Positions 189-16,144 of a stretch of 29,424 bases of DNA are shown in pieces. This DNA is from a virus. How positions within the stretch are numbered: position 1 is the first letter of the stretch; each line of letters opens with the position of its first letter. Where the stretch lies: the IMG/VR virus record IMGVR_UViG_3300035698_023746, positions 1-29,424 of that record. The stretch is one strand, 5' to 3'. The notes under the pieces were generated by a model. The model saw only the letters and a list, made by a program, of their open reading frames with translations, ran no database searches and was not told the DNA's origin. Made by a program: the position numbers and the translations under genes.

Positions 189-468
189 GGCCTTAAGCCC
201 TCCTGTGTATTGGAGTTATGCGTATTATTGGTTTTGGAGTTACCAATAAATCCGACTTCCTCTCGCAGGGATATCACAGAGTTTAACGATATGAGCACTG
301 TCCTTACCACACGGGACTGTTTAACCCATATCCAAAGAGCTTGGAACTGAGGCGGTATCCCAAGGTTTCTAATTTTCTGTGTATCGTTTACAAACATTTT
401 TACTCCTGCCTGTCTGCTGGTAACCTTTGGCTTTTAAAAGCCATGGGGCTTGCCCCGTGGTAGGTTAC
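189..468 (-). ncRNA. omega-RNA (HEARO-like) scaffold of the IscB element
   Basis: Minus strand starts GTAACCTACC (cf. typical GTCAACTACC end). GTAACCT pairs with AGGTTAC around hairpins CCACGGGG-CAAG-CCCCATGG and GGCTTTT/AAAAGCC. Further on: GGGATACCGCCTCAGTTCCAAGCTCT, a GATATGGG/CTCATATC stem and a TATTGG/CCAATA stem. Lies directly 5' of iscB. Confidence 0.85.
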
Positions 469-1694
469 TCGTAATTTTTTATTGAGTGCTTAAGATACTC
501 CATGTAAAGAGAATCTGCACACTGATTTTTACCCTTGCTTTCAGAAATTTTAGCAACGGGTTGTCCGTGGCTTTTTGACATTTTCATGACAACTTGCGGC
601 GTTGGAACAATCGTGTCGTTCGTCAAATCTGTTCCTATGCCAAAAGAACATTGAATTTTCCTTCCAAAAATTTCATGAAGTTTAATTGCCTTCGGAATAT
701 CCAAGCCATCACTGAAAACAATGCATTTTTCCCGAGGGTCTATTCCATAACCTTCATACATGGCTATAATATCATTTGCAAATTTTACAGGATTCCCACT
801 ATCATGGCGCACTCCATCATACAATTTTGCCAACTCTAATGAAAAGTCTTTAAAAAACTTCTTATGACCCAACGTATCAGGAAGGCATATTCCCCAAAGC
901 CCCCTGTATTCACGAGACCATATTTTATATGCCTCTCTCGCGCTATGCTGGACAGGCACAAGTCCCTGCATGCCCATGGGTAAGACATGGCTGAAAGTTC
1001 CGATTGCTTTTAAATCAAACTGCATCGCAGAAAATACATTGCTTGTTCCGACTAGGTTTTCCCCAAGTTCTTCCTGTAAATATTTTATAACCTGGGTTTG
1101 CCAAGCTGAATGCAACCTGCGCCTTGTCCCGAATTCTATCAAACGAAATCCGAATTTACCACCTTCACAACTTCGAACATACGATTTCAGCACGTCAATT
1201 TTGTCCTGTAACCTTTCCCATGCAACCCTGTATACCTCTTCCGTGCTAACGCTGTTCGCTTCCATCCAGTTCTTAGCAAAAACTTGATTTACCGTTGACA
1301 AAACCATAGTTTCATAAGGAATAATCCTAGCCCACGGTCCTTTCGCGTTAATATCCCACCCCTCTCCATTTTTAGGGATTGTAAGGTCATTTTCTACATC
1401 AAACCGAAAATCTTTTAAATATCGCAAATAACTATTTTTAAAATAGCCAAGACGGGAAAGGTAATCTAATTCACGACGATCCAAAAGGAGGGGGTCCAAC
1501 TTGGAAAGGGCCTCCTTGATTTCGTCCCTCGAAACATATTTGAATAGATACCCTGACCCCTCGCCACCGCCTTTCACGTTTCGACAAACGAATTTATACT
1601 CACAGTCAACATTCGAGAAACGATGAAAGACTAATTGCTGCATCGTTAATTGATAAAGGTCAAGATCGAGAAGTGATTTCATAATATAGTTCAT
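465..1694 (-). CDS. pncB: Nicotinate phosphoribosyltransferase
   Basis: Motifs LLDLDLYQLTM, EFGTRRR, GTSNV, GTFSH (phospho-His position), PDT, RHDSG, FSDGLD, FGIGTDLTND, AKISE. GGAGG SD. Confidence 0.95.
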   Translation of the reverse strand: MNYIMKSLLDLDLYQLTMQQLVFHRFSNVDCEYKFVCRNVKGGGEGSGYLFKYVSRDEIKEALSKLDPLLLDRRELDYLSRLGYFKNSYLRYLKDFRFDVENDLTIPKNGEGWDINAKGPWARIIPYETMVLSTVNQVFAKNWMEANSVSTEEVYRVAWERLQDKIDVLKSYVRSCEGGKFGFRLIEFGTRRRLHSAWQTQVIKYLQEELGENLVGTSNVFSAMQFDLKAIGTFSHVLPMGMQGLVPVQHSAREAYKIWSREYRGLWGICLPDTLGHKKFFKDFSLELAKLYDGVRHDSGNPVKFANDIIAMYEGYGIDPREKCIVFSDGLDIPKAIKLHEIFGRKIQCSFGIGTDLTNDTIVPTPQVVMKMSKSHGQPVAKISESKGKNQCADSLYMEYLKHSIKNYE

Positions 1695-1702
1695 GCCTCC
1701 AA

Positions 1703-1730
1703 ATACTGTCGGTTAAATTTTAAAAGTCAA
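1703..1730 (-). promoter_or_regulatory. Possible sigma70-like promoter for pncB
   Basis: TTGACT(1730-1725), 16 nt, CAGTAT(1708-1703). The -10 is weak. Confidence 0.4.
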
Positions 1731-1737
1731 GGATTTT

Positions 1738-1815
1738 TTAAACGAACCCAAATATTTTCCATCTTGGGAAGTTAATTATTCGCTTATTGGTTTCTATGGT
1801 TGGTATTTTTGGCAT
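1738..1815 (-). CDS. 25-aa small ORF between pncA and pncB
   Basis: AGGGAG SD, 7 nt, ATG. MPKIPTIETNKRIINFPRWKIFGFV*. Same strand as its neighbours and fills the intergenic gap. Confidence 0.5.
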   Translation of the reverse strand: MPKIPTIETNKRIINFPRWKIFGFV

Positions 1816-1848
1816 AATATGTCTCCCTGTTTGTTTTGAAGGTTAAAA

Positions 1849-2649
1849 TCAAGAAAAGAACGTGTCTGTTCTCGAAATGCGCATTCCTTTTGCCGCCATT
1901 TCGTTGACAAAGTCGTCTGCAAGGTTTTCAAAACCCGCAACGGGCGAAGACGCATCTTCAAGAAAAACGAATTTCTTAACTTCCTCGTCTGAAAATTCGC
2001 CTGCCACATCAGAGACTGTCGAACGAACGCAATGTGATAGTGCTTCGCCCGCAATCAGGATGGTATCAGCCAATTTCAAGCTATTCACGAATGGCCCGTT
2101 GAGCTTCGTTGTGGGGTCATCAGGATCTTCCACTTCAGCCCTGACAGCGGAATAATGCTCGGTTTTTCGATTTGACCCCTTTGTCACAAAGTCAACCTCT
2201 GCAAATAATTTCTGCCACGCGATAAGTGCGTCGGAAAAAACGGGATAAATCGACCACCCCCATGTCCCGATAAGGCAGTGCGGAACCCAAATATTTAGAG
2301 GATGCCTTTTGTTGATAGCAAGAGATTTAACGTAACCAACCTGCCACTCTTGTGACGCAGGGTTAGAAGCTCTCCATTTAGCATCGGAACCAACAATATC
2401 GTTTTCTTCGATGATGGTAAATGGCACGGGATGATTGCCACTCGAATCAACCCAGCAAATTGGATTGGCAATATGCACAAGCTGATGGGAGTCTAGTGTG
2501 ACGCAAATATTGTCAATCTTGTCAGCGTGTTTCGTGATCATTTTGGCAACACGTTCAGCGTCTTCGCTCGCTCCAGCTACGCATAACGCGCCTTTGGGGT
2601 CGCAAAAATCATTCTGAAAATCAATCGCAAGTAGTTGTATATTTTTCAT
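1849..2649 (-). CDS. pncA: Nicotinamidase (isochorismatase-like cysteine hydrolase)
   Basis: IDFQNDF (catalytic Asp), LDSH and WVPHC metal ligands, TKG Lys, GEALSHCV (catalytic Cys). Adjacent to pncB. Confidence 0.88.
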   Translation of the reverse strand: MKNIQLLAIDFQNDFCDPKGALCVAGASEDAERVAKMITKHADKIDNICVTLDSHQLVHIANPICWVDSSGNHPVPFTIIEENDIVGSDAKWRASNPASQEWQVGYVKSLAINKRHPLNIWVPHCLIGTWGWSIYPVFSDALIAWQKLFAEVDFVTKGSNRKTEHYSAVRAEVEDPDDPTTKLNGPFVNSLKLADTILIAGEALSHCVRSTVSDVAGEFSDEEVKKFVFLEDASSPVAGFENLADDFVNEMAAKGMRISRTDTFFS

Positions 2650-2714
2650 AATTTTGTTTTTGTTTATTCCGTTTGTAAGAATCTAATGTTAAAAAAAAAT
2701 AAATCTTGGCGAAT

Positions 2715-4190
2715 TTAATCCTCGAATTTGAAATAAGGACAAGCTTTCTTTTTCTGCGCCCATGCGAAGACCCAAAGGTAAGCAAGGAACTGACCGATGA
2801 ATTTCAGGATATTTATGAAACCCGCCCATCCAGACGTAAGCAACCTGCCAATTGGTCCGAGGACTCTTTCAATAATCGCAGCAAGCTTCGCACAGTGTTC
2901 ATCCAAACGCGCCATTTTTTCTTCCCAAGCTTTGATTCGTTCAAGAGATCCATCAACGTCAATGATTAGAGAATCGGACAGTCGGAGAAACCATTTGTCG
3001 AATTTTGAAAAGCATTTATTAGTATACATATAATCCGTGCGATAGGGACCAAAGACCAAATCTAGCTGTTGCAAGAAGTTGTAAACGTCTTTGGACAGCA
3101 CATCTTTTGGCACGAATTCATCGAAGTAACAATGCCAGCCGTAAACGCTTCCCCGATGCCTCTTTGGCGTATCGCCGAAATCCTCTGGTTTGTGCAACAT
3201 CAGCGGCCCAATAAGCGGCCTTATGGTTTCCTCGTAGAAATCTTCTACAAATTGTTTCTTGAAAGAATCGTAGAATTTTGAATAATGGTTGATTTCACCT
3301 ATTCGCCCATAAGACGAAATCGCTTTTTCTTGCAGATTCATAACGAAGTCACCATCTTCGAGCATTCTATCCACAAACATCTGCTTCCATTCTCTTTGGT
3401 AAGTCGAAGGCTTCTCTTCTGAATCGTCATCATCCTCAAGGAGGAAAAAGCGGACAAGGAAAGAAAGACCTCCCAATATCACAGCGACTACCAAGGCAGG
3501 AATTGCCATTAATTTTGCGGCAAATACCGTCCATACAAAAAGCTTTACGGCACACCACCAGATTCCCCAAACAACCACAGAGATCCCCCCTCCAATCACA
3601 ATAAAAATGTTGAGAAAAGAAGCTAAGTTAAAGACAAGTATACCCGTAAGCATTAAGACTCCCCACCCATACACAAAATACTTAGTGGAACAGTTACACA
3701 GTCCCTTTTCTTCAAAAATCGCAGAAGCTGCGGCGATTGCGAGACCGATAGGAATTCCCCACCAAAGCATGTAATATATAGGCAGATGACCATACGCTAC
3801 AAGACCGCCAAGAAACACTCCGACAATGAGGGATAACACGAACCCGACGATGGACACGGCAAAGCCCATCAGGATAAGAGAGGCAATTCCCGCTCCCGTC
3901 TCTTTAGTAATGGGAAATGGGCAATGATTCCGCCCAAAATCGTCGACCACTTTAAAAGGCTTGGCTACTGTGCTTCTTAGGATAGGCTGAAAGATGTAAT
4001 AGATCGGCCAGACAAAACAGAACCTGAATCCCGTCATACCGAACAAGCCGAACCAAAAGAACGGGCAGACAGAGAATCCCTCTGGGACATCTTTTTGCCA
4101 CAATTCATTTTTAAACAAGTATTTGAAGCCCTTGTAGATTGGATGGGTTTTCTTATACCACGCTTTTACCATTTTTTCTGGAACTAACAT
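2715..4190 (-). CDS. Multi-pass membrane protein, unknown function
   Basis: About 6-8 long hydrophobic segments in residues ~40-250, an acidic linker (EDDDDSEE), a soluble domain and a hydrophobic C-terminal segment. AAAGGA SD. Confidence 0.8.
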   Translation of the reverse strand: MLVPEKMVKAWYKKTHPIYKGFKYLFKNELWQKDVPEGFSVCPFFWFGLFGMTGFRFCFVWPIYYIFQPILRSTVAKPFKVVDDFGRNHCPFPITKETGAGIASLILMGFAVSIVGFVLSLIVGVFLGGLVAYGHLPIYYMLWWGIPIGLAIAAASAIFEEKGLCNCSTKYFVYGWGVLMLTGILVFNLASFLNIFIVIGGGISVVVWGIWWCAVKLFVWTVFAAKLMAIPALVVAVILGGLSFLVRFFLLEDDDDSEEKPSTYQREWKQMFVDRMLEDGDFVMNLQEKAISSYGRIGEINHYSKFYDSFKKQFVEDFYEETIRPLIGPLMLHKPEDFGDTPKRHRGSVYGWHCYFDEFVPKDVLSKDVYNFLQQLDLVFGPYRTDYMYTNKCFSKFDKWFLRLSDSLIIDVDGSLERIKAWEEKMARLDEHCAKLAAIIERVLGPIGRLLTSGWAGFINILKFIGQFLAYLWVFAWAQKKKACPYFKFED

Positions 4191-4421
4191 TTTAATTTTC
4201 CTTTATGGGTGTGAGTCTGTATGTTGTTTCTTTGATTTTTATGCGAAACGAGCGGGGGGGGGCTGCGATTTGAAACCGTGCCGCCACCACCTCTATAAGT
4301 GGGTATTGGTGCGGGGTAGTCTCCTGAAATTAACCTAATCTTTTAATAGTTTGCTCACGCGAGGAAAATCGGTCCCAAATTTTTTCTCGGATATAGCGAT
4401 TTCCAAAGCGTTTTTCTGACC

Positions 4422-5129
4422 TCAGCTTTTTGCGATATCTGAAGAGGTGAGAGAGTGCGAAGTCTTTACGATCTCAGAGAGACAGTGCGAAGTCTTTACG
4501 ATCTCAGAGAGACAGTATGGAGTGCGATGAATGACACGGTAGCCACACCCGACAACGATTGCTTCAATCCGACGAGTCGAGAGAGGCATCCCTTTCATCC
4601 GACTCTGCGCACTTTTGAGAGTAGCTGGGGTGCCATTTGTCAATCGATTCCTGACATAGGCCACAACTTTATTCGCCCAACTGTTGCTGATCGGAACAAT
4701 ATGAGCCGCCTTAGGGTCGGGTTTCTTCGTGAACCTCGACATTCTTTTCGCCGCCCTGTCTGCGAAGGTTTTTGCGGCTGTAGGGGTGCCTGCTACTGGA
4801 GGCCGAGGGTTTACTCGCGCAACTGGATCACTGGAAGTCTGAGGCTTTTTTGCCCCGTATTCTACGTATCTACCTCGATTTAACGTGGAGGAAACATCTG
4901 ACCTGTTCCGTGCAATCGCCCAGACGCGGCTTCTAACCTGCTTGTGCTCAATTAGTTGGGTAATCTTACCCTCAACGCTTTCGCTTTTAAATCCTTCGAT
5001 TGTAATCAACCTGCTATTCACTTTTTCCCTGATAGCCAGTGTGATTTCATGCGCTGAAAACGTTTTGTTCCCATCGACCTTTTCTTGGATCGCTTCTTTT
5101 ATAGCTTCTAAAAATTTTACTTGTCTCAT
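4422..5129 (-). CDS. Basic hypothetical protein, possibly DNA-binding
   Basis: 235-aa K/R-rich ORF in operon orientation. Contains the duplicated decapeptide CLSEIVKTSH. Confidence 0.7.
   Translation of the reverse strand: MRQVKFLEAIKEAIQEKVDGNKTFSAHEITLAIREKVNSRLITIEGFKSESVEGKITQLIEHKQVRSRVWAIARNRSDVSSTLNRGRYVEYGAKKPQTSSDPVARVNPRPPVAGTPTAAKTFADRAAKRMSRFTKKPDPKAAHIVPISNSWANKVVAYVRNRLTNGTPATLKSAQSRMKGMPLSTRRIEAIVVGCGYRVIHRTPYCLSEIVKTSHCLSEIVKTSHSLTSSDIAKS
4454..4516. repeat. Perfect 30-bp tandem duplication, in frame
   Basis: gcgaagtctttacgatctcagagagacagt at 4457-4486 and 4487-4516. Confidence 0.97.
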
Positions 5130-5190
5130 GTGTGTATTCTTCTTTTTTTTAATTTCTTATTGATTCTGTTTGTATCTTAAGTCAAGCTTT

Positions 5191-5490
5191 TTATCCAAGC
5201 CCACGAACTTTTCGCCAAACCTCCCGAGTAATCACGCCACTCATTTCATCTGGGTGTTTTATTTTCAAGGTTTCCCTGAACCACGTTGGTATAACGCCGC
5301 GCTTGTCCCATAGACGAAGCCCGTTTCGCAAAGCCATCCCTGAATGAAGATGGGTTTCTTCTACAAAGGCATTTTCACCTGTTTCCAAAATGAATGCCTT
5401 ATCTTCCTCTATCAATTCCCCGACCAAAATAGAAACTATTTGACCAAGGTCGATAGGGTTCATTTTTCTGACCATTTCTATGTTAAACAT
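5191..5490 (-). CDS. Hypothetical protein, DUF6794-like
   Basis: H-x-G-x-x-LRN-x-L-x-LW...HPDEMSGVI pattern matches my recollection of DUF6794. Not database-checked. Confidence 0.6.
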   Translation of the reverse strand: MFNIEMVRKMNPIDLGQIVSILVGELIEEDKAFILETGENAFVEETHLHSGMALRNGLRLWDKRGVIPTWFRETLKIKHPDEMSGVITREVWRKVRGLG

Positions 5491-5502
5491 ATTTTCTTTC
5501 TT

Positions 5503-6780
5503 TTAGTTAAACTCCACCAAGATGGTGAGATTGCATTGGTTGTTGTTGTAAACGATAAATTCATCATTTCTTATGCCCGATTTTCCATGTTTTGCCCAAG
5601 TCGAATCATATCCCGTGACAGGATAGCGACTTCCGCCGCCGTAACCACTTGGGGTATAAGCTTTTCCGAGAGCAACGTCGCCCAGAAACATAAAGCAGTT
5701 GGAATCTGTATTACCATCCCAATAACCATAAGAATAATTCAGGGACTTTGTCGAGTCAGAAGCGAAATAAATTCCATTCCCAAACATTTTACCCGCAATA
5801 TGCGCTGTGTTTGGCGGGGAAATCCTCAGTCCTCCCTTGAGAATCGAAAGCAGGTTTGCCTTCTTTGTGCCGTGCCACAGTTCACGCACGTTGTTTATTT
5901 TTTTCGCACGCTCTTCGAACGCGTCTGCCATTGAAGCAATCCTTACAAAGAAAGCTCGCTTGACAGATAGACGAGAGGCAACATGCATTCCCTTGCGAGT
6001 GTCCTTGTATTTATTAACGATGCGATCAAAAATCTTTGAATCTTCAATCAAATCAAGGGACACGTCAAAAACCTGCTCTTCTTTCTCCACGACAGTCTTG
6101 CTGGATGCGGGCTTCGTCTGAAGAGCCTTGTAAGATGCCTCCAAGGAATCTAAAATGTCACTTTGACGAACGACTGATTGTGTATCGGGGAAAATTGCGT
6201 TGACATCAAATTTCATTCCAATGTCCTGCGGGACGATTCTAAAATAGCTATTGATCCCATCATACCAATCATTATCTTGGTTCTCAAGGCCATCCTTGAT
6301 ACTCACTAATAAACCCCTCGCCTCATCAATCCCATCCTGTGTAACGACACCAAGAGGGGTGGAGAAGAGGCCAGTTGCGCCATTGTAGGTGATCTGTGTC
6401 GTGGAAACGATACTGTGGATGTTCCAACGCACAAGACGCTCAATCAATTTGTTTAGCTCGGGGCTATTGGAAGTTGCTTGGATCTGTGACTTTGCAACCG
6501 CATGAAGGTCGCCGCTATCATGGGTAACAGTTTTCGACTCGCCCTCTTTTACCGTGCGGACGGGAGTGTAACCCTTTTTAAGCTTCTCCTTTTCCTTTTT
6601 TCTCAAGAAAGACGCGCCGCCCCTGCTTGCTGGAAAGTTTGCAGACTGATTTTTCTTGCCTACCCGCCCCCACTCTGTAATTACCGTATCATCATCATAT
6701 AAAATGCCAATCCAGTGTTTGTTTGAGTTTTTCCGAGATTCTGCGTAAATGAGTCTGATTTCTGTTACTATGTTTGACAT
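5503..6780 (-). CDS. PARP-like ADP-ribosyltransferase (WGR + helical regulatory + catalytic domain)
   Basis: EWGRVG (WGR). TPLG...SYFRIVP (regulatory domain). LWHGT, GLRISPP, GKMFGNGIYFA, KSLNY, FLGDVALG, DEFIVY give an intact H-Y-E triad as in PARP1. Likely start is ATG 6780; the track starts at GTG 6789. Confidence 0.93.
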   Translation of the reverse strand: MSNIVTEIRLIYAESRKNSNKHWIGILYDDDTVITEWGRVGKKNQSANFPASRGGASFLRKKEKEKLKKGYTPVRTVKEGESKTVTHDSGDLHAVAKSQIQATSNSPELNKLIERLVRWNIHSIVSTTQITYNGATGLFSTPLGVVTQDGIDEARGLLVSIKDGLENQDNDWYDGINSYFRIVPQDIGMKFDVNAIFPDTQSVVRQSDILDSLEASYKALQTKPASSKTVVEKEEQVFDVSLDLIEDSKIFDRIVNKYKDTRKGMHVASRLSVKRAFFVRIASMADAFEERAKKINNVRELWHGTKKANLLSILKGGLRISPPNTAHIAGKMFGNGIYFASDSTKSLNYSYGYWDGNTDSNCFMFLGDVALGKAYTPSGYGGGSRYPVTGYDSTWAKHGKSGIRNDEFIVYNNNQCNLTILVEFN

Positions 6781-6787
6781 GGCTCCC

Positions 6788-6843
6788 ACAATGCAGTTTT
6801 TTTTTGATGAGTCAAGTTTTTTTTTGATGAGTCAAGTTTTTTT
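6788..6843 (-). promoter_or_regulatory. PARP promoter with a duplicated 20-bp unit (two TTGACT boxes, A9 tracts)
   Basis: agtttttttttgatgagtca at 6795-6814 and 6815-6834, plus a partial copy. Proximal TTGACT(6815-6810), 16 nt, CATTGT(6793-6788), 7 nt, ATG. Confidence 0.65.
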
Positions 6844-7462
6844 AGCAACAAAAGTCCCAAGAGTGGCCGCCACGAGAAAGGCACATTGGACACTCAATCG
6901 CGTCGTCCTCTGGGGTCGTCCCCATCGTGCTCCTAATCTTAAGGCGTAAGTCTTTCAAACGCTCTTGAATTTTCTCTGGATGGTAATCTTCCGTAACTTC
7001 TGGCCAAAGAAAAGTTTCTCCACCAGCCTCTTCCCATTCCCGAATATTCTTGGTGTTGTCGTCAATGAGAAGATCTTCGTCTCCCGTGCAGAATTTTGAT
7101 TTCGCCCCCGCCCCTATAACCAAGCGCTGAGTATGCTTTGGAAAGCTTTTCTTTACCCACTCAGCTTTCCCTGACCAGCAGCCCGAATCCATCATTGGCT
7201 TTGTTAGAAAGCACCATTGACCTTTCGTTTCCTCGTGGACAAGCTTGACAAGCTCATCTGCCCAAGGATATTTTTCAAGGTTCACCCAGAAATCATGACC
7301 GCGAATACGTTTGTAAAATGATCCCTTCGTTATTCCAAAGAGACTGATCAGATCGTAGCTGTCAAACTGCGTTTTCTCAGGGAGCGTATAGTTGAAGATG
7401 CGTGCTGCGCCCTTTGTAAAGTTTGCGAGAACGGCGTCAAGATCCAGACGGATAAATTTCAT
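6842..7462 (-). CDS. HAD-superfamily 5'(3')-deoxyribonucleotidase (NT5C-like)
   Basis: N-terminal DLDAVLANF (DxD motif), LTKP, LLIDDNTKNIREWEEAGG. Confidence 0.85.
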   Translation of the reverse strand: MKFIRLDLDAVLANFTKGAARIFNYTLPEKTQFDSYDLISLFGITKGSFYKRIRGHDFWVNLEKYPWADELVKLVHEETKGQWCFLTKPMMDSGCWSGKAEWVKKSFPKHTQRLVIGAGAKSKFCTGDEDLLIDDNTKNIREWEEAGGETFLWPEVTEDYHPEKIQERLKDLRLKIRSTMGTTPEDDAIECPMCLSRGGHSWDFCC

Positions 7463-7564
7463 ATTTTTTATTCGGTTTGAGTTAAAGCAGTGTAACTATT
7501 ATCACAACGCATCTAAGAATTGTCGCATGGACAGGAAGTTCCTTAAATACTCCAAGCTTTAACC

Positions 7565-7594
7565 ATTATGCGTGCCCCCCTTGAAATTAGTCAA
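7565..7594 (-). promoter_or_regulatory. sigma70-like promoter
   Basis: TTGACT(7594-7589), 18 nt, CATAAT(7570-7565), immediately after a terminator. Confidence 0.65.
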
Positions 7595-7595
7595 G

Positions 7596-7618
7596 AAAAA
7601 AGGGGCCGAAGCCCCTTT
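7596..7618 (-). terminator. Rho-independent terminator after the vWA gene
   Basis: AAAGGGGC-TTCG-GCCCC followed by T6; UUCG loop. Confidence 0.9.
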
Positions 7619-7624
7619 GTTTGA

Positions 7625-8308
7625 TTAGCTTTTCTCGAAGAAGTCCGCTTTGGTATCGTCCCCTGCGGCAGTGCTGGCATAATAGCCTATAGTGCTCGTC
7701 TCCAACTTACGGGTCATCTCTTGCACTCCCTTACCACTCGCAGCATATTGCAACGCGTTGGTAGCCAGAATGTTGTGGTCTCTTGCAAACTTCGCCACGT
7801 CATGATTCGCACCGATGTAAACGAACGTCCAGTCATGCTCATCTTGATGCTCTTTGATTAAGTCGGCAATTTGCCCGCCATTATAACAGCGAGAACTATT
7901 CTCTTCTCCGTCAGTAAAGATTGTCACTAATACCTTACATGATTGAAAATAATAGCCCAGCTTTTGACTTAGCGCTTTGATTCCATAACCAATTGCGTCA
8001 TAAAGAGCAGTTCCACCGCCAGTCTGATAGGTTTCACCGTTTAAAGGTTGCAGCGCCTCTGGCTTTTCACAAAGAAAAATTGTTTTTACGCCATTTTCCT
8101 CAGGCTTTCTCTTCTCAGCACCCTCATCACCAAACCAACCGCCGCTACTAAACACGATAAGTCCCGCAAAGGATTGAATATCATGCTGTTTGCTGCTATC
8201 TTTGATCGATTGAATTTGAGAGTTGAAAGATTCCATGATGGGTTCCTTTATAGAACACATGGAGCCGCTGGAATCAAGAATGATAAGATTAACTATTGCC
8301 TTATTCAT
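7625..8308 (-). CDS. von Willebrand factor A domain protein
   Basis: MIDAS motif ILDSSGSM, GGTALYDAIG, IFTDGEENSS, FVYIGAN. Start placed at ATG 8308 to avoid overlap; the track starts at 8326. Confidence 0.92.
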   Translation of the reverse strand: MNKAIVNLIILDSSGSMCSIKEPIMESFNSQIQSIKDSSKQHDIQSFAGLIVFSSGGWFGDEGAEKRKPEENGVKTIFLCEKPEALQPLNGETYQTGGGTALYDAIGYGIKALSQKLGYYFQSCKVLVTIFTDGEENSSRCYNGGQIADLIKEHQDEHDWTFVYIGANHDVAKFARDHNILATNALQYAASGKGVQEMTRKLETSTIGYYASTAAGDDTKADFFEKS

Positions 8309-8313
8309 AATAA

Positions 8314-9153
8314 TTACCCTATCCATCCTGCTGGTGGTGTCGCAAAGTCGCTAAACCCTTTTGGGAAAGCAACGGAAGTTTCTTTTGCGCAAAAAACAGG
8401 AACACCCATATCGATGAGCGCCTGACGGCTTGCGTAGAAAATATTCATCTCTCCAAAAAGATCACCCTTTTTGAAATCGACCTCAGTAACTTTCTGGCCT
8501 TTCTTTTGGCCCCAAGTTGTTCCCATGTCAAAGTTTGCTGGCTGTGCCGCGCTTGCGACCAAGCCCTTATTCTCATAGGTTGCTTTACTTCGCGTCTGCC
8601 TTGCACTGCAAGGAGTTCCACCATATCCGCCACTGGCAGAGCCGCTGTAACAATCAGTCGTGGCACCTATCCACCCTCCCGTAACATTCGCTCCCGTAAC
8701 ATTCGCTCCGATCCCAACATTCGCCTCAAAATGCCGATCCTGCCAATCGATAGGTTCTCCCCATACAGGGATCTCCACTTTTTCCTCAAACACTCGAACG
8801 CTTATTACGCCTTCGTTACCACCCTCACCCTGCGATGAAGCGTAGCTGTTGCTTTTGCCCGTGAAGCTGAATGCCCCAACACTGTTGTTGTTATTCTGGA
8901 AACCTTTTAGCTTTACCGTGCTTCTAGGCTCTAATATATAGCCTCCCGATTTGCTTTTCGCGGCCTTGCCGCTGATAACGCTGACACCATCAACTGATAC
9001 GATGGCTAACGCCTTTTGATCTCCATGGTTTTTTATTTCCAGTTCGTATTCCGAGCCTTCTTTGGCTTCGATAAAAACACGACCGTCGTGTGTGTGTTCT
9101 TTCACTTTCCTTCCATTGACCAATACTCTCATTGTGTACTTGTATATATCCAT
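8314..9153 (-). CDS. Conserved hypothetical beta-rich protein, co-transcribed with vWA
   Basis: YELEIKN...VSVDG...GYILEP...GF...FSF...GVISVRVFEE pattern, a Gly-rich linker and FDMGTTWG. AAGGA SD. Confidence 0.8.
   Translation of the reverse strand: MDIYKYTMRVLVNGRKVKEHTHDGRVFIEAKEGSEYELEIKNHGDQKALAIVSVDGVSVISGKAAKSKSGGYILEPRSTVKLKGFQNNNNSVGAFSFTGKSNSYASSQGEGGNEGVISVRVFEEKVEIPVWGEPIDWQDRHFEANVGIGANVTGANVTGGWIGATTDCYSGSASGGYGGTPCSARQTRSKATYENKGLVASAAQPANFDMGTTWGQKKGQKVTEVDFKKGDLFGEMNIFYASRQALIDMGVPVFCAKETSVAFPKGFSDFATPPAGWIG
8676..8709. repeat. 15-bp tandem duplication, in frame (GANVT x2)
   Basis: ctcccgtaacattcg at 8676-8690 and 8691-8705, with a degenerate third copy following. Confidence 0.9.
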
Positions 9154-9191
9154 ATCTACTATTCCTTCATTTTATTTATGACTAGCCTCAC

Positions 9192-9821
9192 TTACTGAGG
9201 ATTTCTCTTCTTGTTTAAATATATCAACTCGATATATTCAAAAAATCTTTTTTCTGGCATATCCATTTTCATTTGATTGATGTCCTTGTGAACCCATTGA
9301 ACATTGCCGACAACGTACCCCTCGCTCGAATCAATCCGATCCAGAGAGGCAGTCGTTTGTCGAGAGCGAACCGTGTCAAATGCTAATTTTAGCCCAGACA
9401 GCGCACACTTCTTGTTTTGCGCCTCGAATAAGTTATCTAAGAATTTTATAGACAATTCAAACTTAACGTCCCTGCGAGCGGCACCAATTTGACACGTAGA
9501 AAAATAATTTTTTGAGATGTTCCCATACCCCTTCCAATGGGAGCTTTGTTCACCTTCTGCGTTTTTTAAACAGCCGCAGCTTTTTCTTTTTCCAGACTTA
9601 ATAAACGCTTGGCGAGCAATAAATTCATTGCCGCAATTACATTTACAAAGCCACAGAACCCCGACCCTTTTCTTAATTCCATGTGGCTTTAATGGTTCAA
9701 GCGGAATAAACTGGCTATTAATTTTTTCTCCAGCTAAAGAATGGTCAATCGCTTTGCGATACCTTTTATCTGTCTTACCTTTGGGCATACCTCTATATAT
9801 ACATATGAACAAGCGGCACAT
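9192..9821 (-). CDS. Free-standing HNH-type (His-Me finger) homing endonuclease
   Basis: WLCKCNCG...KSCGC N-terminal module; CALSG, SLDRIDSSEGYVVGNVQWVHKDINQMK. True start may be MPKGK (9788, AGAGGT SD). Confidence 0.82.
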   Translation of the reverse strand: MCRLFICIYRGMPKGKTDKRYRKAIDHSLAGEKINSQFIPLEPLKPHGIKKRVGVLWLCKCNCGNEFIARQAFIKSGKRKSCGCLKNAEGEQSSHWKGYGNISKNYFSTCQIGAARRDVKFELSIKFLDNLFEAQNKKCALSGLKLAFDTVRSRQTTASLDRIDSSEGYVVGNVQWVHKDINQMKMDMPEKRFFEYIELIYLNKKRNPQ

Positions 9822-9839
9822 ACTGCCGATTTCACTTTT

Positions 9840-9867
9840 ATTATAGGAGAAATGAAACTAAATTCAA
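9840..9867 (-). promoter_or_regulatory. sigma70-like promoter; -35 contains the clpC TGA stop
   Basis: TTGAAT(9867-9862), 16 nt, TATAAT(9845-9840). Confidence 0.75.
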
Positions 9868-12323
9868 CTAGAGATTGAGTGAATGATTTTCTTGTTTTTG
9901 ACAAGCAGCTTGATCTTTGAGCCCTTTTTCATTTTCTTGTCCAAGAAATCAGAGACCAGTTTGTCCTCAACTAAATTTGTTATCTCGCGCCTTACTTCCC
10001 TAGCTCCATATTCGTCGCTGAATCCTGACTTTGCGATATTATTTAAGACCTCACGCGACCAAGACAAGTCAAAGGAATGTTTTTTCAAACGCGCCGCAAT
10101 TTTCGCAAGCTCAAGGCCCACAATTTCTGCACAATCTTTCTCTGACAGGTGATCGAAGCAAAGGATATCGTCGAAACGATTGAGAAACTCTGGCTTAAAT
10201 ACTCCTTTTAATTTCGTAAGCATTTTGCCGCGCTTCTCAGCTTCTTCAGCCTTCTCGTCCCTACCTCCGAACCCAAGGGGATTGTGATTTCCCACGCTTG
10301 CATTCGTTGTCGCAAAGACAATTGCGTCCCTAAAATTCCCTTCCTTGCCGACGTTATCTGTTATGCGACCCTCTTCAAGAACCTGAAGCAAGACTTGGAC
10401 AACGTCTGGGTGAGCCTTCTCTATTTCGTCAAAGAGAACGACCGAATGTGGGTGCTCTCGGATAGATTTGACTAGCCTTCCGCCATCTTCATACCCAACA
10501 TACCCTGATGGGGCGCCAATGAATTTATTCACGTCGATCTTATCTTTGTACTCAGACATATCAAAGTAAATCAAGTTCTTTTCGCTGCCAAATATTTCTG
10601 TCGCGATTATTTTTGCAAGGTATGTTTTGCCGACTCCCGTTGGTCCAGCAAGAAGAAAGCTTCCGATGGGTTTGTGGGGATCTTTGAACGGCGTATTATA
10701 CTTTCTCAAAACTTCCGCGACCGCTTTAACGCTTTCATCTTGACCGATCACAACCCTGGTTAAGATCTTCCCAAGCTTTTTCAGCTTCTCACGCTGAGAG
10801 GTATTAAGATCCGACACGGGAACCCCCGTCCAGTTGCTGACAATCTCTTGAATGTCACTTATTGTTACTTTCTTTGGCTGTGTTTTCTTCTCTGATTCAA
10901 GCTTCAGAAGTCTATTCTGACATTTTCTCCCAGCATCCCTGCATTTTGCCGCCTGTTCAAAGTCATCCTCTACAGCCGCCTTCTTTTTGTCTGCGTTGAT
11001 CTTCTGGATCTTACCTAATAAAGCCTTGCGCTCCTCAGATGTCTCATCGTTAACATCTTCTGATAGTTTCGATTTTGCACCAGCTTCATCAATAATATCA
11101 ATTGCCTTGTCTGGGGATTGACGGTCGGTGATATACCTTTCCGCAAGCTCTGCCGCCATAAGCAGAACCCCATCGTCGTATTTCACCCCATGAAATTTTT
11201 CATAAACACCTTTCAATCCACGGAGAATACTATGAGTTTCCTCAACATCGGGCTCTTCGACTTTAACAGGCTGAAACCTCCGCTCTAAAGCTGAATCCTT
11301 CTCAATATATTTTCGATATTCATCAAGTGTAGTCGCGCCAATACAAGGGAACTCTCCCCGTGCTAAAGCTGGCTTAAGGATATTCGAGGCGTCCATGGTT
11401 CCCTCTGCTGATCCTGCGCCGATAACAGTATGAATCTCATCAAGGAAAACAATTATGCGCCCTTCCGCACGAACAACTTCCTCCATCACGGCTTTTATTC
11501 GCTGCTCAAATTGCCCGCGATAGTTTGTCCCTGCAATCAAAAGACCCAAGTCCAGATTGAAAATCACGCGATCCCTTAACCGCTCTGGCACTTCCCCATT
11601 TACAATTTTTTGAGCAAGCCCTTCAACAATCGCCGTTTTTCCCACGCCTGCCCTTCCGACAAGGACGGGGTTGTTCTTGCGTTTTCGAGAAAGGATGTGA
11701 ATTAGTCGATTGATCTCAAGAGACCTGCCTATCACTGGCTCGCTATCAGAAGATTTAACTCGATTGTTAAGGTTAATCCCATACTTTTCAAGGACTTGTG
11801 AACCGCTTTCCTTTTCCGTCTTTGCTTTGCCCCCCGCAGCAATTTGTTGCATTTTTGGAACCTCGCCAACATTCATTGCCTCCATCAAAGAATTTTTTAA
11901 ACCCTCTATGTTGACATCCAACTCCTTTAACACGCTGCAAGGTATAGATTGTGGTAGGGACAAGATTGCCAAAAGCAAGTGCTCCGTTGCCACGTATTGC
12001 TGTCCTAAGTCCTTGGAGATCTCTTCCGCAACTCTTAGGCATTTCCTAGAAGTTGGACTGTAGTCTAGGTCCGCACCATCCTCGCCCTCACCCTCAGGTA
12101 ATTTCTTCTTTGGTTTCGACCGAAGAGAGACCTGATCCATGAGTGACTCTTGGTCCATCCCAGCCTGCGTAAAAACCTTTGCCGCGACCCCTTGATTCAT
12201 CCTGAGAATCGCAAGGAACAAATGCTCCGACCCTATATGCTCAGAGTGGAGACGATTCGCTTCATACCTTGCGTTCTCGATTATTCGCCGCGCTCTTGGC
12301 GTTAAGTTTGATTTTTTTTCCAT
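9864..12323 (-). CDS. clpC: ClpC-type Hsp100 AAA+ unfoldase
   Basis: Two Clp-N repeats; [14 protein letters not shown]; short coiled-coil middle domain; [14 protein letters not shown]; LGF ClpP-docking loop (NPLGFG); KPEFLNRFD. Confidence 0.9.
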
Positions 12324-12327
12324 CTTT

Positions 12328-12945
12328 TTATTTAAATAAAAATTGTTTCCACTCTTCTTTCATCTCACCATCCCTAACATGGAGGATTAAAGGCCATTTT
12401 TTGATCTTCTCCTCTAGTTTTACACCATCCGCATCAAAATAGGGGTGAATGTCTGCTTTTCTAGAGTTACATCTCTTGCAGGTTGGCAAGACATTGTATG
12501 ACTCCGCGGGCCCGCCCTTGCTTCGTGGGAAAACGTGCTCGATAGTCATATTTCTCAACTTTGTTTTCTCACCGCAGATCTGACACCTGTTGTTATAATA
12601 CGAGGAAAGCCTTGACAAGGGAATTTTTCCCGCTCTTGGTTTATAGAAAAAGGTGCTTGTCGTAACACCAACAAATGGAATTGGCCACTCTGTATGAGCA
12701 CTCTTTAAGCATGGCTGATGATCGGGGAAGATAGGTAAGTCCACCTCTTTGCTCTGCGGTAAAGATGGAAACCAACTATTTGCCGAACTCCAAGTCCCAA
12801 GGTGGGTATTTCCAAACTGGTCAAGGGCTTTCATTCTTCCACAAAGCATGTGACTCATCGCTACCCGTGCTGCGACAACCCTTAAAGGCATCCATCCCGT
12901 GTTGAGAATTAAAGTCGTTTTTTCTGTTGCTTTTACCTGAATCAT
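12328..12945 (-). CDS. HNH endonuclease (McrA/HNH_5-like)
   Basis: LILNTGWMPL N-terminus; CQICG...TIEHVFPRSKGG...NVLPTCKRCNSRK. Confidence 0.9.
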   Translation of the reverse strand: MIQVKATEKTTLILNTGWMPLRVVAARVAMSHMLCGRMKALDQFGNTHLGTWSSANSWFPSLPQSKEVDLPIFPDHQPCLKSAHTEWPIPFVGVTTSTFFYKPRAGKIPLSRLSSYYNNRCQICGEKTKLRNMTIEHVFPRSKGGPAESYNVLPTCKRCNSRKADIHPYFDADGVKLEEKIKKWPLILHVRDGEMKEEWKQFLFK

Positions 12946-12981: not shown

Positions 12982-14517
12982 TCAATTCTCGAAATACAAT
13001 GTGAAGTTATGCGGGTTTTGGAACGCAAGCGTATCGAGTTTCATTCCCTGTTTCTCATACTTTCGAACAAAAGATTTTCCGAAATCATTTATAACATCAC
13101 AATTTGGAAATTCTTGCAACCCCATATTGTATTGCCTAACCACCCCTCGGACGCTCGTGACCATGTTAGTATACGAACACTTACAGTAATAAATTTTACG
13201 CTCTGCAATTTTCTTGCCCTCATAGGTAACAGAAACAATCCCCCACTCAGACTCATCGTCCCTTTTCAGATCAGGGAAAACCTTTTCCATTTTTGCCTGA
13301 CTAACTAAAGCATAAATCTTGAAATGGCCCTCTTTTGCATCCCAACCTAACCCATTGATTGGTATATTGTTGCGGGTAAAAAACGAAACGTCAACGCCAC
13401 GCTCTTTTATAATCGCATTGACTTTTTCCGATAGGAAAAGTGGGTGAGCTATACTTCCACACGCCATCCTTCCTGAGTTGACGTGATCCTTTTTTTCGAC
13501 CCTGTGGCTAAAGGTAAAATTGCTGATTCTTGAATCTTCTACCGATGGTTCTCCGTCAAGCTGACAGCAAAGGTCAACGTAGTCAAGCTCTTTTGGAGTT
13601 AGGCACGCTTTCCAATCAAAGAAATTTTTGCAGTGCCAATGAAAATTCTCAAGTCTACGGTTAACAGAAAGCTTTTTCATCGCATGGGTTACTGTAATCT
13701 CCCTGTCGAAAAATTTTGTCTTGATTCCCCAAGATTGATGAATGTCGTGTGAGAATGAGTCATCCACCCCACCCATCTTTATAAACCCAATATTTCCGAA
13801 TGGGTAGGTTGGGATGGGAACCTGAGTGTATCGAAACCTTTTCTCAGGAAACGCAAAGGACAAGGCGTATTTCAAATAGCGCACAAAATCTGGCGCAACA
13901 TAAAAGGTTGGGCATTGAGTTATAATTCTCCCGCCCTTGGATAGAATCTGCGAGCAGCCTATGTAAAAATCGACATCAAAAAGACGCCTTGCTGGACCAA
14001 CAGGGTCTGACAAGTCAAGAATAATTACATCGTATTCCTTTTTGTTTTGCGCTGCACGGTGAACGAAATCAAACCCGTCCTTATTGAAAAAATTGGCCCT
14101 CGAAGAATTCATCGCTTCTGAGATTTTAAAGCTTGACATGTGCCTCTCACACAACCTAACAACATTTATGTTTATTTCGCACCAATCAATCTCGCTGATA
14201 ACGTTAGATGGGTATTTTAAAAGCTCCCTAACGCAGCCACCATCCCCCCCTCCAATTACCAACACTCGCATGTCCTTCGGACTCAACCTTGCAGTCGTTG
14301 CCATCGGCCAGTGAACAATGGTCTCATGATAGACATGCTCATCGAATTCACAGGTTTGGATTTCATCATCCAGAAACAAAGCTCTTCCCAGCCCCTCAAT
14401 GTCTCGAATAGAAACGTCTTCTACCGTCTGAACATCTGATGCCTTGAAGCCCATGGAATGGTTTGTTTGCCCATCTCCTAAGCTGTAGTCTTGATAACGC
14501 CATGTATTATTTTTCAT
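12982..14517 (-). CDS. speE: Spermidine synthase (aminopropyltransferase) fused to a ~230-aa unknown C-terminal domain
   Basis: ALFLDDEIQ, VYHE, VLVIGGGDGG, CEIN, DVIILDLSDP in the first ~275 aa. 511 aa total versus ~280-300 aa for ordinary SpeE. Confidence 0.88.
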   Translation of the reverse strand: MKNNTWRYQDYSLGDGQTNHSMGFKASDVQTVEDVSIRDIEGLGRALFLDDEIQTCEFDEHVYHETIVHWPMATTARLSPKDMRVLVIGGGDGGCVRELLKYPSNVISEIDWCEININVVRLCERHMSSFKISEAMNSSRANFFNKDGFDFVHRAAQNKKEYDVIILDLSDPVGPARRLFDVDFYIGCSQILSKGGRIITQCPTFYVAPDFVRYLKYALSFAFPEKRFRYTQVPIPTYPFGNIGFIKMGGVDDSFSHDIHQSWGIKTKFFDREITVTHAMKKLSVNRRLENFHWHCKNFFDWKACLTPKELDYVDLCCQLDGEPSVEDSRISNFTFSHRVEKKDHVNSGRMACGSIAHPLFLSEKVNAIIKERGVDVSFFTRNNIPINGLGWDAKEGHFKIYALVSQAKMEKVFPDLKRDDESEWGIVSVTYEGKKIAERKIYYCKCSYTNMVTSVRGVVRQYNMGLQEFPNCDVINDFGKSFVRKYEKQGMKLDTLAFQNPHNFTLYFEN

Positions 14518-14891
14518 TAATTATTTATCCCTCTCGATATTTCTTTCACGTCAATCTTTTTTGCACAAATTCGTTTCTGAATTGCTGACATAAACTTGCT
14601 GAAATCGTGAGGTCCGCAAACGTGATAGTCTATAAGTGCCTGCCCCAACTCTGGCCACGTATGTATAGAAGCGTGGGACTCTGCTAAGGACAACAAAACT
14701 GTCACACCCTGAGGTGAAAATGACCTTGCCATTCCTCCAAGACAAGTGCTTCCCGCCTCTTCCACTGCAATCAAGAGGGTAGAGTAAAGATCCTTCTCGC
14801 TATTTAATACGCTTTCATCACACCCAAAAACATCAACAAGATAATGCTTGGAAATCGGATTGTGTTTAGATGTTAATTTTTCATCACCCAT
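14517..14891 (-). CDS. speD: S-adenosylmethionine decarboxylase proenzyme (class 1b)
   Basis: KHYLVD, PQGVT, LAE|SHASIHTWPE self-cleavage (pyruvoyl) motif, CG. Adjacent to speE. Confidence 0.92.
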   Translation of the reverse strand: MGDEKLTSKHNPISKHYLVDVFGCDESVLNSEKDLYSTLLIAVEEAGSTCLGGMARSFSPQGVTVLLSLAESHASIHTWPELGQALIDYHVCGPHDFSKFMSAIQKRICAKKIDVKEISRGINN

Positions 14892-16144
14892 TATTTCAAA
14901 TCGCTGAGTTTTAGATAAGCCTTCCTGTCTAAGATAGACAAGTCGCTTAAGAAGATTATATCATTCGAACGAGATCCTTTTGCAATCACAATGTTTCCAT
15001 CCTCTGGCAACACAATCTTCCCATTGGTGGGAGTGTTCCTATCAATCCACTTGTTGAAAGACCAATCATAAAAGATACACTTTAAGCTTGCATCAGAGTC
15101 GTCAAGTGTAAGCTTTAACATATCAGCATTTTTCGCCTTGGACTTGGACCTCTTCACCTCAGATAAGCTTCCGCAGAAAATCCCACGCTCTCTATCCTCC
15201 ATTTTGTCGAACTCACTCAAAGGCTTCAACTCTCTTTGCTCTTCCTTGAGAATCTCAAATAATGAATCACTATAAGAAAAACCTAACAGTTCCTTTTCAA
15301 AGAACCAATTGGCAAGCCTGTTATGCTCCCTATTTCTTTTGTAAATCTCAAGGTATCGAACACTTTTCCGCTGGATGGTTCCCCCATCTTCCTCCATACT
15401 CTGACCCTCAGCTAGGATCTTCCATCTGGTGGGTTTGAAAATCAAAACCTTGCCGCCCTCATCCTTTCGATCCTCTTCTACACAGACTCTAATTAATTCG
15501 AACAGATTGTTGTCGAACTCTCCCGTGAATTGTAAGACGTAACGCTTCTCCCTTGGAGTTAATAGGTTAAAGACTTGCGCCTCCAACACCGCGTAACAGC
15601 GAGGCTTGTCTTGTAAGATGATGGAATTGATTGCTCCTGCTTGAATCAAAGCAGAAAGAGCACCAATAGATATGCCGACTTCTTTTGCAGCGAGAAAAAG
15701 CTCGAACTTGTTTGAGATGGTTTTCCCCTCAACAATATCTCTCAGCTTCTCTACAGTATCATATTTCTTATGACCTATTCCTTTCACTGCTGCCAATCCA
15801 AAACGAATATTCTTCCCCTCAATGGCAAATGCAATTTCACTCTTCAATAAATCAGGAGGTAGAAGCTGGGTTCCAAAATGACTAAGCTCTTTTGTGATCT
15901 TGGATATCTCCAAGTGAGGCTTTGGCTCTTTCAAACTCATGTTCAACAGCGCCAAGAAAAACTCTTTTGGGTAGTTCCACTTAAGGTAAAGCGTCCACGC
16001 GGAAAGGGTTGCGTAAGAAATACTGTGGCTATTGGAAGTTACTAATCCCTCGGCATAAAAATTGTGATTTGAATGTCCAACTTCTAAATCCAAGGTTTTC
16101 TTTTTTCCTATGTTTCTAATCTTTTTAATTTTTGTAGTTCGCAT
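14891..16144 (-). CDS. dnaE: DNA polymerase III alpha C-terminal part, preceded by split intein IntC
   Basis: After a 38-aa IntC: SHSISYATLS...YLK..YP.EF, LLPPDL..S, IRFGLAAVKGIG (HhH), EKELLG, C-terminal OB fold. Confidence 0.95.
   Translation of the reverse strand: MRTTKIKKIRNIGKKKTLDLEVGHSNHNFYAEGLVTSNSHSISYATLSAWTLYLKWNYPKEFFLALLNMSLKEPKPHLEISKITKELSHFGTQLLPPDLLKSEIAFAIEGKNIRFGLAAVKGIGHKKYDTVEKLRDIVEGKTISNKFELFLAAKEVGISIGALSALIQAGAINSIILQDKPRCYAVLEAQVFNLLTPREKRYVLQFTGEFDNNLFELIRVCVEEDRKDEGGKVLIFKPTRWKILAEGQSMEEDGGTIQRKSVRYLEIYKRNREHNRLANWFFEKELLGFSYSDSLFEILKEEQRELKPLSEFDKMEDRERGIFCGSLSEVKRSKSKAKNADMLKLTLDDSDASLKCIFYDWSFNKWIDRNTPTNGKIVLPEDGNIVIAKGSRSNDIIFLSDLSILDRKAYLKLSDLK
16031..16144 (-). 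other. Split intein C-half (IntC, 38 aa)
   Basis: MRTTKIKKIRNIGKKKTLDLEVGHSNHNFYAEGLVTSN|S. Block F (DLEV...NFY), terminal Asn, +1 Ser. Confidence 0.93.

Follow-up and report, generated by a model that had tools for sequence, protein, structure and literature searches.

Introduction

What might a phage gain from a nicotinamidase gene set beside a nicotinate phosphoribosyltransferase gene, when the product of the two enzymes lies two steps short of nicotinamide adenine dinucleotide (NAD+)? The question is raised by pncA and pncB, which adjoin near one end of IMG/VR virus record IMGVR_UViG_3300035698_023746; we analyzed positions 1 to 29,424 of that record and refer to the whole 29,424-nucleotide (nt) stretch as the window. 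Our answer, to which gene content and comparative data lead us to assign a probability of roughly 70%, is that the pair would be a working but reduced nicotinamide salvage module of a jumbo phage, serving mainly NAD+ homeostasis in connection with the PARP that the phage itself encodes. Phage-borne NAD+ salvage of the Preiss-Handler type is already known, and what is most informative about this locus is its standing as a natural deletion variant of a larger cassette.

NAD+ is one of the main grounds on which phages and bacteria contend, and three routes by which phages rebuild it have been proven. NARP1 (Adps and Namat) and NARP2 (Nampt and Nmnat) were described in 2024, and NARP3 consists of a PnuC-like transporter and a NadR-like enzyme (Sci Adv 2026, PMC13464706); for NARP1, NARP2, and NARP3 it has been shown experimentally that phages rebuild NAD+ to defeat NADase defenses (for NARP3, PMC13464706). 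A deamidating route through PncA, PncB, NadD, and NadE is predicted to be widespread in jumbo phages. The NAD-jumbo phages, known from metagenomes and described in silico, carry pncB-nadD-nadE clusters (e.g., Kuafu_71), a PARP, and a phage pncA (Microbiome 2024, PMC11662467). Two broad reviews of viral NAD+ systems treat only the NadV, NadM, and NadR genes (PMC9503650, PMC7824862).

The pncA-pncB Pair

The two genes lie on the same strand, 154 nt apart.

1849 to 2649, minus strand: pncA, encoding a long-form nicotinamidase of 266 amino acids (aa), recognized by its triad, metal site, AlphaFold2 model, Foldseek matches, and position in a tree
465 to 1694, minus strand: pncB, encoding a nicotinate phosphoribosyltransferase of 409 aa, recognized by NCBIfam and Pfam models and active-site motifs

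A preliminary description of this DNA had read the pair as an intact nicotinamidase beside an intact nicotinate phosphoribosyltransferase, and its coordinates for the two open reading frames (ORFs), both on the minus strand, proved exact; residues, the PncB scores against hidden Markov models (HMMs), and the PncA fold agree with that reading. An in-frame ATG at 1682 is an alternative start for pncB and gives a 405-aa form, the version present in the protein collection.

PncB scores above the cut-offs of both NCBIfam NF003704 (407.2 bits against 379) and TIGR01514 (345.1 bits against 269.55), has the two-domain Pfam architecture NAPRTase_N plus NAPRTase, and carries the EFGTRRR motif at residues 187-193; the phage Nampt PHROG matches it weakly, at only 1e-05. 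The earlier assignment to the PncB rather than the Nampt type is borne out by the two models and the motif, and by its sequence the protein is a member of the nicotinate phosphoribosyltransferase equivalog TIGR01514. In characterized PncB enzymes a histidine, equivalent to His236 here, is phosphorylated, coupling ATP hydrolysis. Set against P. aeruginosa PncB2 (1yir, the closest solved structure, 263 bits) and 3os4, the phage protein retains FGTRRR, GT.SH (which includes His236), RHDSG, SDGLD, and FGIGT. A single-protein scan of IMG/VR with PncB gave no match.

In PncA the triad D10/K157/C207 and the metal ligands D53/H55/H124 align with those of yeast Pnc1 (2h0r) and M. tuberculosis PncA (3pl1), and all six residues are invariant across 30 homologues. 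An Asp/His/His metal site, which binds the pyridine nitrogen, separates nicotinamidases from other isochorismatase-fold amidases. The AlphaFold2 model, built on an alignment of homologues, has a predicted local distance difference test score of 96.3 and a predicted template-modeling score of 0.91. Ranks 1-15 of its Foldseek matches in the PDB are nearly all solved nicotinamidases, with E values down to 5.8e-15; among the matches are 2wta, 3v8e/2h0r, 3r2j, 9u8m, 1ilw, and 3pl1. An insertion of about 60 residues occupies positions 60-119, and the precomputed Pfam annotation of the protein lists PF00857. As modeled and aligned, PncA is a nicotinamidase by all the structural criteria applied, with nicotinamide as its predicted substrate; the integrity of both genes, their folds, and their catalytic residues are direct observations.

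A Fragment of a Jumbo Phage

The window comes from a jumbo phage whose genome probably measures about 200 kb. We call it viral because it is collinear with a complete jumbo phage, IMG/VR UViG_3300012943_000001 (hereafter G006), which we reached by scanning IMG/VR with the PncA alignment. G006 is 205,462 bp long and has direct terminal repeats, a CheckV completeness of 100%, and a terminase match above cut-off; searches of it for Pfam HK97 capsid, Prs, and NAD-dependent ligase gave no match. On the side of the window past pncB, 3 kb more are supplied by a metagenome contig (L002) that is 100% identical to the window, so that the total sequence covered is 32.5 kb. Twenty-five of the 30 window proteins, and two from the L002 extension, are homologous to G006 proteins that follow one another in the identical order (25-62% identity). 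The collinear tract runs for some 46 kb and includes VWA, NT5C, PARP, an ORF235-like gene, PncA, PncB, and a 196-aa gene. Phage origin and synteny are thus observed directly.

Every long ORF of the window is on the minus strand. Its genes encode DnaB, primase, a UvsX-like recombinase, a PD-(D/E)XK nuclease, a fragmented DnaE with an intein, several HNH proteins, a ClpB-like ATPase, SpeE/AdoMetDC, NADAR, PARP, and an NT5C-like nucleotidase; the UvsX-like protein, DnaB, primase, and DnaE have PHROG matches. Megablast of 25 kb against GenBank phages gave no match. As to phage hallmarks, which the preliminary description had left to be confirmed, the window has no capsid or terminase gene; its phage origin is shown by the collinearity with a complete phage.

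A Larger Cassette in Relatives and Bacteria

In G006 the order is VWA, NT5C, PARP, ORF235-like, PncA, vWA-like, PP2C, kinase, PncB, NadE, a 122-aa ORF, NadD-like, and the homologue of the 196-aa gene. The vWA-like protein has 245 aa and a MIDAS motif (DxSGS...T...TDG), and the NadD-like protein matches TIGR00482 over its full length at 83 bits, below cut-off. The window has the G006 order on both flanks, minus two blocks: the vWA-PP2C-kinase triad that separates PncA from PncB in G006, and the nadE-nadD block that follows PncB there. It has instead an orphan membrane protein and, in the slot of nadE and nadD, a HEARO/IscB element. No PP2C or kinase was found in the window or L002, and the only vWA protein there is a distant paralogue at 7625-8326; the loss of both blocks from this site is a direct observation.

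Within the G006 series, the four genes from PncA to the kinase form a cassette in their own right: a long-form nicotinamidase, a 245-aa vWA-like protein, a PP2C, and a kinase of 560-700 aa (e.g., L094:9998-16784, which is G006 122,125-128,900, and L014:5980-11596). Jumbo phages carry it, as do members of many bacterial phyla, and PncB, NadE, or NadD is often located within it or next to it. We examined 10-kb neighborhoods of the 80 best viral PncA loci. PncA, vWA-like, PP2C, and kinase stand in that order on one strand in 66 of the 80, with a median gap of 90 nt after PncA; conversely, when the vWA-like protein served as the query, 79 of the 80 viral loci retrieved had PncA, the sole exception having no room upstream. 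PncB lies within 10 kb of PncA in 19 loci, always on the same strand and often with NadE directly after it; NadE does so in 16 and a NadD-like gene in 11. At no fewer than 15 of the 80 loci, PncB is interleaved in the four-gene set or adjoins it. On bacterial chromosomes the cassette is present in at least 23 of 80 genome loci, an example being the PncA-vWA-PP2C-kinase-PncB series of Armatimonadota locus L014.

In a maximum-likelihood tree the window PncA falls within a clade of triad- and PncB-linked viral (jumbo-phage) sequences with 98% support in the SH-like approximate likelihood ratio test, which makes it orthologous to the nicotinamidase of the cassette even though the window lacks the triad. 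From its nesting among such sequences we conclude that the window lineage lost the triad. Triad-less pncA-pncB adjacency is found in parallel at viral locus L104 and at Capsulimonadaceae loci L064 and L083 (L014 keeps the triad), and pncB comes directly after pncA at bacterial loci L058, L064, L081, and L083. The pair had been described as a PncA+PncB module; the G006 synteny and the tree show that it is no self-standing two-gene design but what deletions have left of a larger PncA-vWA-PP2C-kinase-PncB-NadE-NadD cassette common to phages and bacteria.

The triad recalls the TerY-P defense genes. PADLOC (E ≤ 0.001) returned no TerY-P or other defense-model match for the triad or PncA, only two faint kinase-like matches for the triad, and the resemblance is therefore only architectural. 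Our literature search found no paper linking a nicotinamidase with a vWA/PP2C/kinase triad.

Two features mark the places from which the blocks are missing.

1738 to 1815, minus strand: stub ORF of 25 codons (MPKI...), in the pncA-pncB spacer
251 to 468, minus strand: HEARO (IscB omega) RNA, Rfam RF02033, 92.6 bits against a gathering score of 83

The stub begins 33 nt past the pncA stop, and the vWA-like gene (MPKL...) of the closest relative, G006 (locus L094), begins at the identical spacing. Similarity of the stub to vWA N-termini is not significant (18.5 bits; shuffle mean 15.4, maximum 24.8). Possibly the stub is the remaining 5′ end of a vWA gene and marks a deletion scar. The HEARO RNA abuts and overlaps the pncB stop codon and forms the 3′ boundary of the module. 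The accompanying IscB-like ORF (415 aa, RRXRR plus HNH, L002:4713-5960) extends past window position 1, and the element as a whole spans window 251-468 on the minus strand and L002:4433-5960. A 74-aa ORF at 173-397, inside the HEARO RNA, is probably spurious. The L002 extension contains the HEARO/omega RNA, the IscB-like ORF, a 196-aa ORF, a 101-aa ORF, and a PTH2-like gene. Promoter and terminator scans gave no excess over shuffled expectation, and apart from HEARO no NAD+ riboswitch or other Rfam family was found near the pair.

Pathway Completeness

The available contig had been thought to rely on the host, or on genes out of view, for NadD and NadE. We looked for these and for Prs, Nampt, NadR, and PnuC over the 32.5 kb of window and L002 and found none; because neither nadD nor nadE is there, the reliance stands as it was first put. 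Eight related phage genomes with long-form PncA were scored for the remaining enzymes:

G006: PncB yes; NadE yes; NadD-like yes
G009: PncB yes; NadE yes; NadD-like no
G010: PncB yes; NadE no; NadD-like yes
G011: PncB no; NadE yes; NadD-like yes
G008 (95% complete): PncB yes; NadE no; NadD-like no
LR756511: PncB yes; NadE yes; NadD-like weak candidate only
LR756500: PncB yes; NadE yes; NadD-like none clear
LR745208: PncB no; NadE yes; NadD-like none clear

A phage with PncA and PncB that would leave the last two steps to its host is not unique, since G008 has the same complement. Phage Atu_ph07 has PncB and NadE, and long-form PncA gave no tblastn match in it.

The PARP Neighborhood

The pair is located four genes downstream of an intact PARP gene.

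5503 to 6789, minus strand: PARP with WGR, regulatory, and catalytic domains (Pfam PARP, 1.4e-31)

The order VWA-NT5C-PARP-ORF235-PncA is retained in G006 and at loci L095-L098, and a PARP gene lies within 10 kb of PncA in nine of the 80 viral loci, including all the closest relatives. This PARP is the likely source of nicotinamide within the phage, and its conserved neighborhood fits a pair that recycles or removes PARP-derived nicotinamide. Among bacteria the linkage is anecdotal (one of five Armatimonadota genomes). At Chthonomonadaceae locus L026, on a 793-kb contig, a PARP 45% identical to that of the phage adjoins the nicotinamidase-vWA-PP2C-kinase cassette near pncB (1194-12792); that genome has a second PARP copy elsewhere, and four related Capsulimonadaceae genomes have no PARP.

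For the genes between PARP and pncA we found no tie to NAD metabolism, and the ESM Atlas gave nothing usable for ORF491 or ORF235. ORF491 (2715-4190, minus strand), directly upstream of pncA, encodes a 491-aa multi-pass membrane protein. It is a lineage-specific orphan: among 5.8 billion proteins no homologue was found except its own record, and none in G006. We also asked whether ORF491, ORF235, and ORF279 derive by divergence from the genes for the kinase, vWA, and PP2C proteins, and found that they do not. The distant vWA protein (PHROG 7371; 7625-8326, minus strand) overlaps by 13 nt the gene for a 279-aa protein (8314-9153, minus strand); G006 conserves both, with identities of 37-40%, on the upstream side of NT5C and PARP.

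Discussion

We propose that PncA, a metal-dependent Cys-Asp-Lys amidohydrolase, would convert nicotinamide to nicotinate and that PncB would join nicotinate to phosphoribosyl pyrophosphate, with ATP, to give nicotinate mononucleotide (NaMN). NadD and then NadE, from the host or from phage genes outside the sequence covered, would complete the route from NaMN to NAD+. The comparative evidence shows that the pair descends by deletion from an ancestral PncA-vWA-PP2C-kinase-PncB-NadE-NadD cassette of phages and bacteria, located just downstream of PARP in this phage clade. The module's most likely role would be to maintain the NAD+ supply and hold nicotinamide down as the phage PARP and any host NADase use NAD+, with counter-defense as a possible by-product. 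That a nicotinamidase may sustain an NAD-consuming enzyme by clearing nicotinamide is an established idea, exemplified by Pnc1 and Sir2 in yeast. The substrates, the flux, the nicotinamide source, and the benefit to the phage are points that we infer.

The comparison with known systems places the locus. The preliminary description had offered it as a candidate third NAD+ route, a place closed since NARP3 is already PnuC plus NadR (PMC13464706); nor is a phage Preiss-Handler route distinct, jumbo-phage pncB-nadD-nadE clusters, phage pncA, and phage PARP having been reported in 2024 (PMC11662467). As in those NAD-jumbo phages, salvage genes of the PncB type are clustered with NAD genes beside NAD consumers that include PARP. 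The NAD-jumbo phages, however, are defined by a complete pathway and a genome above 200 kb, whereas only PncA and PncB are visible in our 32.5 kb, and the report lacks the vWA-PP2C-kinase linkage (PMC11662467). By the same yardsticks the closest relative, G006 (205 kb), has PncA, PncB, NadE, and a NadD-like gene; the window is a partial genome without NadE or NadD at the syntenic place. NARP2 (e.g., NadV/NatV of Vibrio phage KVP40) is likewise a two-gene phage module that starts from nicotinamide and uses the type II phosphoribosyltransferase fold, but its route is amidated, from nicotinamide through nicotinamide mononucleotide to NAD+, and complete in two steps, while the window pair would deamidate first and end at NaMN. 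NARP1 and NARP3 are, as the pair would be, phage-encoded systems of NAD+ restoration; they differ in starting from ADP-ribose plus nicotinamide or from imported nicotinamide riboside, in the families used, and in that their defeat of defense has been shown experimentally, any such effect of the window pair being putative. None of the NARP component families (Adps and Namat, Nampt and Nmnat, PnuC and NadR) was found in the window or L002. Like the NARPs the pair is phage-encoded, and the 32.5 kb do not contain a route to NAD+ by phage genes alone. Bacterial pncA-pncB operons and yeast Pnc1/Sir2 share the two-step chemistry; unlike them, the window genes are phage-borne, and PncA is a 266-aa long form with a 60-residue insertion.

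Several points weigh against a working homeostatic module. PncA scores below curated HMM cut-offs (PF00857, 24.7 bits against a gathering score of 27; PRK11609, 32.6 against 174), and its match to both models is confined to the first 60 residues; we attribute the weak scores to the insertion. PARP is near only 11% of the viral PncA loci, and four of those nine have an identical PncA, so the coupling is clade-specific. Of a genome that probably measures about 200 kb, 32.5 kb are visible, and nadD and nadE may therefore lie elsewhere in it. That the triad, nadE, and nadD have gone might reflect decay of the module and not streamlining, and, many bacterial hosts already owning pncA and pncB, the gain from a phage copy is putative.

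A dedicated counter-defense device is the strongest competitor, though we think it clearly the less probable account. The pair would rebuild NAD+ from nicotinamide freed by host SIR2 or TIR NADases, as a further NARP-type route completed by host NadD and NadE. NARP1-3 are the precedent, nicotinamide is both the product of these NADases and the substrate of PncA, relative G006 has the full four-enzyme route in one cluster, and NadE, useful only on the deamidated route, is present in six of the eight related genomes. Yet bacterial chromosomes commonly carry this cassette too (588 genome loci or more), and there an anti-defense role is impossible; this phage has no NadE or NadD at the syntenic site; and the route needs four steps at an ATP cost above that of NARP1-3. 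No known anti-defense genes flank the pair, no feature of its sequence is specific to NADase immunity, and removal of nicotinamide might, by analogy with yeast Pnc1 and Sir2, also relieve product inhibition of sirtuin-type NADases. We favor NAD+ homeostasis alongside a consumer because PARP is beside PncA in the closest relatives, PARP is beside the Chthonomonadaceae cassette, and the cassette is frequent in bacteria; the two roles are not mutually exclusive. A bolder proposal, which we regard as doubtful, would make pncA and pncB the catalytic ends of an undescribed phage and bacterial PncA-vWA-PP2C-kinase-PncB-NadE-NadD cassette that gates nicotinamide-to-NAD+ salvage by phosphorylation. The full phage cassette would then be a fourth NAD+ reconstitution route against NADase immunity, and this phage would hold a switch-deleted, constitutive two-enzyme variant that uses host NadD and NadE.

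If instead the deletions had left pncA and pncB as remnants without a current role, one would point to the loss of the triad, NadE, and NadD when this phage is compared with all its closest relatives, to the mobile HEARO/IscB element at the pncB stop, and to the terminal branch of the window PncA (0.64 against a median of 0.31). Such decay seems improbable to us, given that both ORFs are full length with all catalytic and metal-binding residues intact, that viral locus L104 and bacteria (L058, L064, L081, L083) came independently to a triad-less pncA-pncB adjacency, and that G008 likewise retains PncB without NadE or NadD. Far less probable again, to the point of being negligible, is a cellular contig carrying the two genes as a routine housekeeping operon of a bacterium. 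Many bacterial chromosomes do have members of the long-form PncA family and pncA adjoining pncB, and the window lacks a capsid or terminase gene, but a cellular chromosome, which the preliminary description had named as the finding that would overturn it, is at odds with the collinearity of the whole window with a complete phage that has 48 tRNAs, a terminase, and terminal repeats. All genes of the window share a single strand, they are of phage type (the UvsX-like recombinase, fragmented DnaE with intein, several HNH genes, PARP, and NADAR), and the nearest relatives of PncA and PncB are on viral contigs.

The window and its complete relative G006 make up a natural pair, a stripped two-gene version and the full cassette. 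They offer a test ground for the working of the route during infection, for the defeat of NADase defense, and for the contribution of the kinase/phosphatase/vWA switch. If the two enzymes only serve the phage's own PARP, they provide a concrete hypothesis about what phage PARPs need to function.

Other Genes of the Window and G006

The DnaE gene is in at least three pieces, all on the minus strand: 14891-16144, the PHP part; 16345-18180, the catalytic part, ending in an intein N-part; and 20882-21733, beginning about 37 residues before the HHH/OB part. The G006 matches to the two later pieces abut (106,831-109,461), and the gene is apparently unsplit there. A polyamine pair (12982-14891, minus strand) encodes an AdoMet decarboxylase and a 511-aa spermidine-synthase-like protein, for which the assignment does not extend to the C-terminal half, and a gene at 9864-12323 (minus strand) encodes an 819-aa ClpB/ClpA-like double AAA+ chaperone; both the pair and the chaperone are kept in G006. 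The 48 tRNA genes of G006 form a single array at 156,400-179,100, and one of them has a CTA anticodon of the amber-suppressor type (labeled Pyl by ARAGORN).

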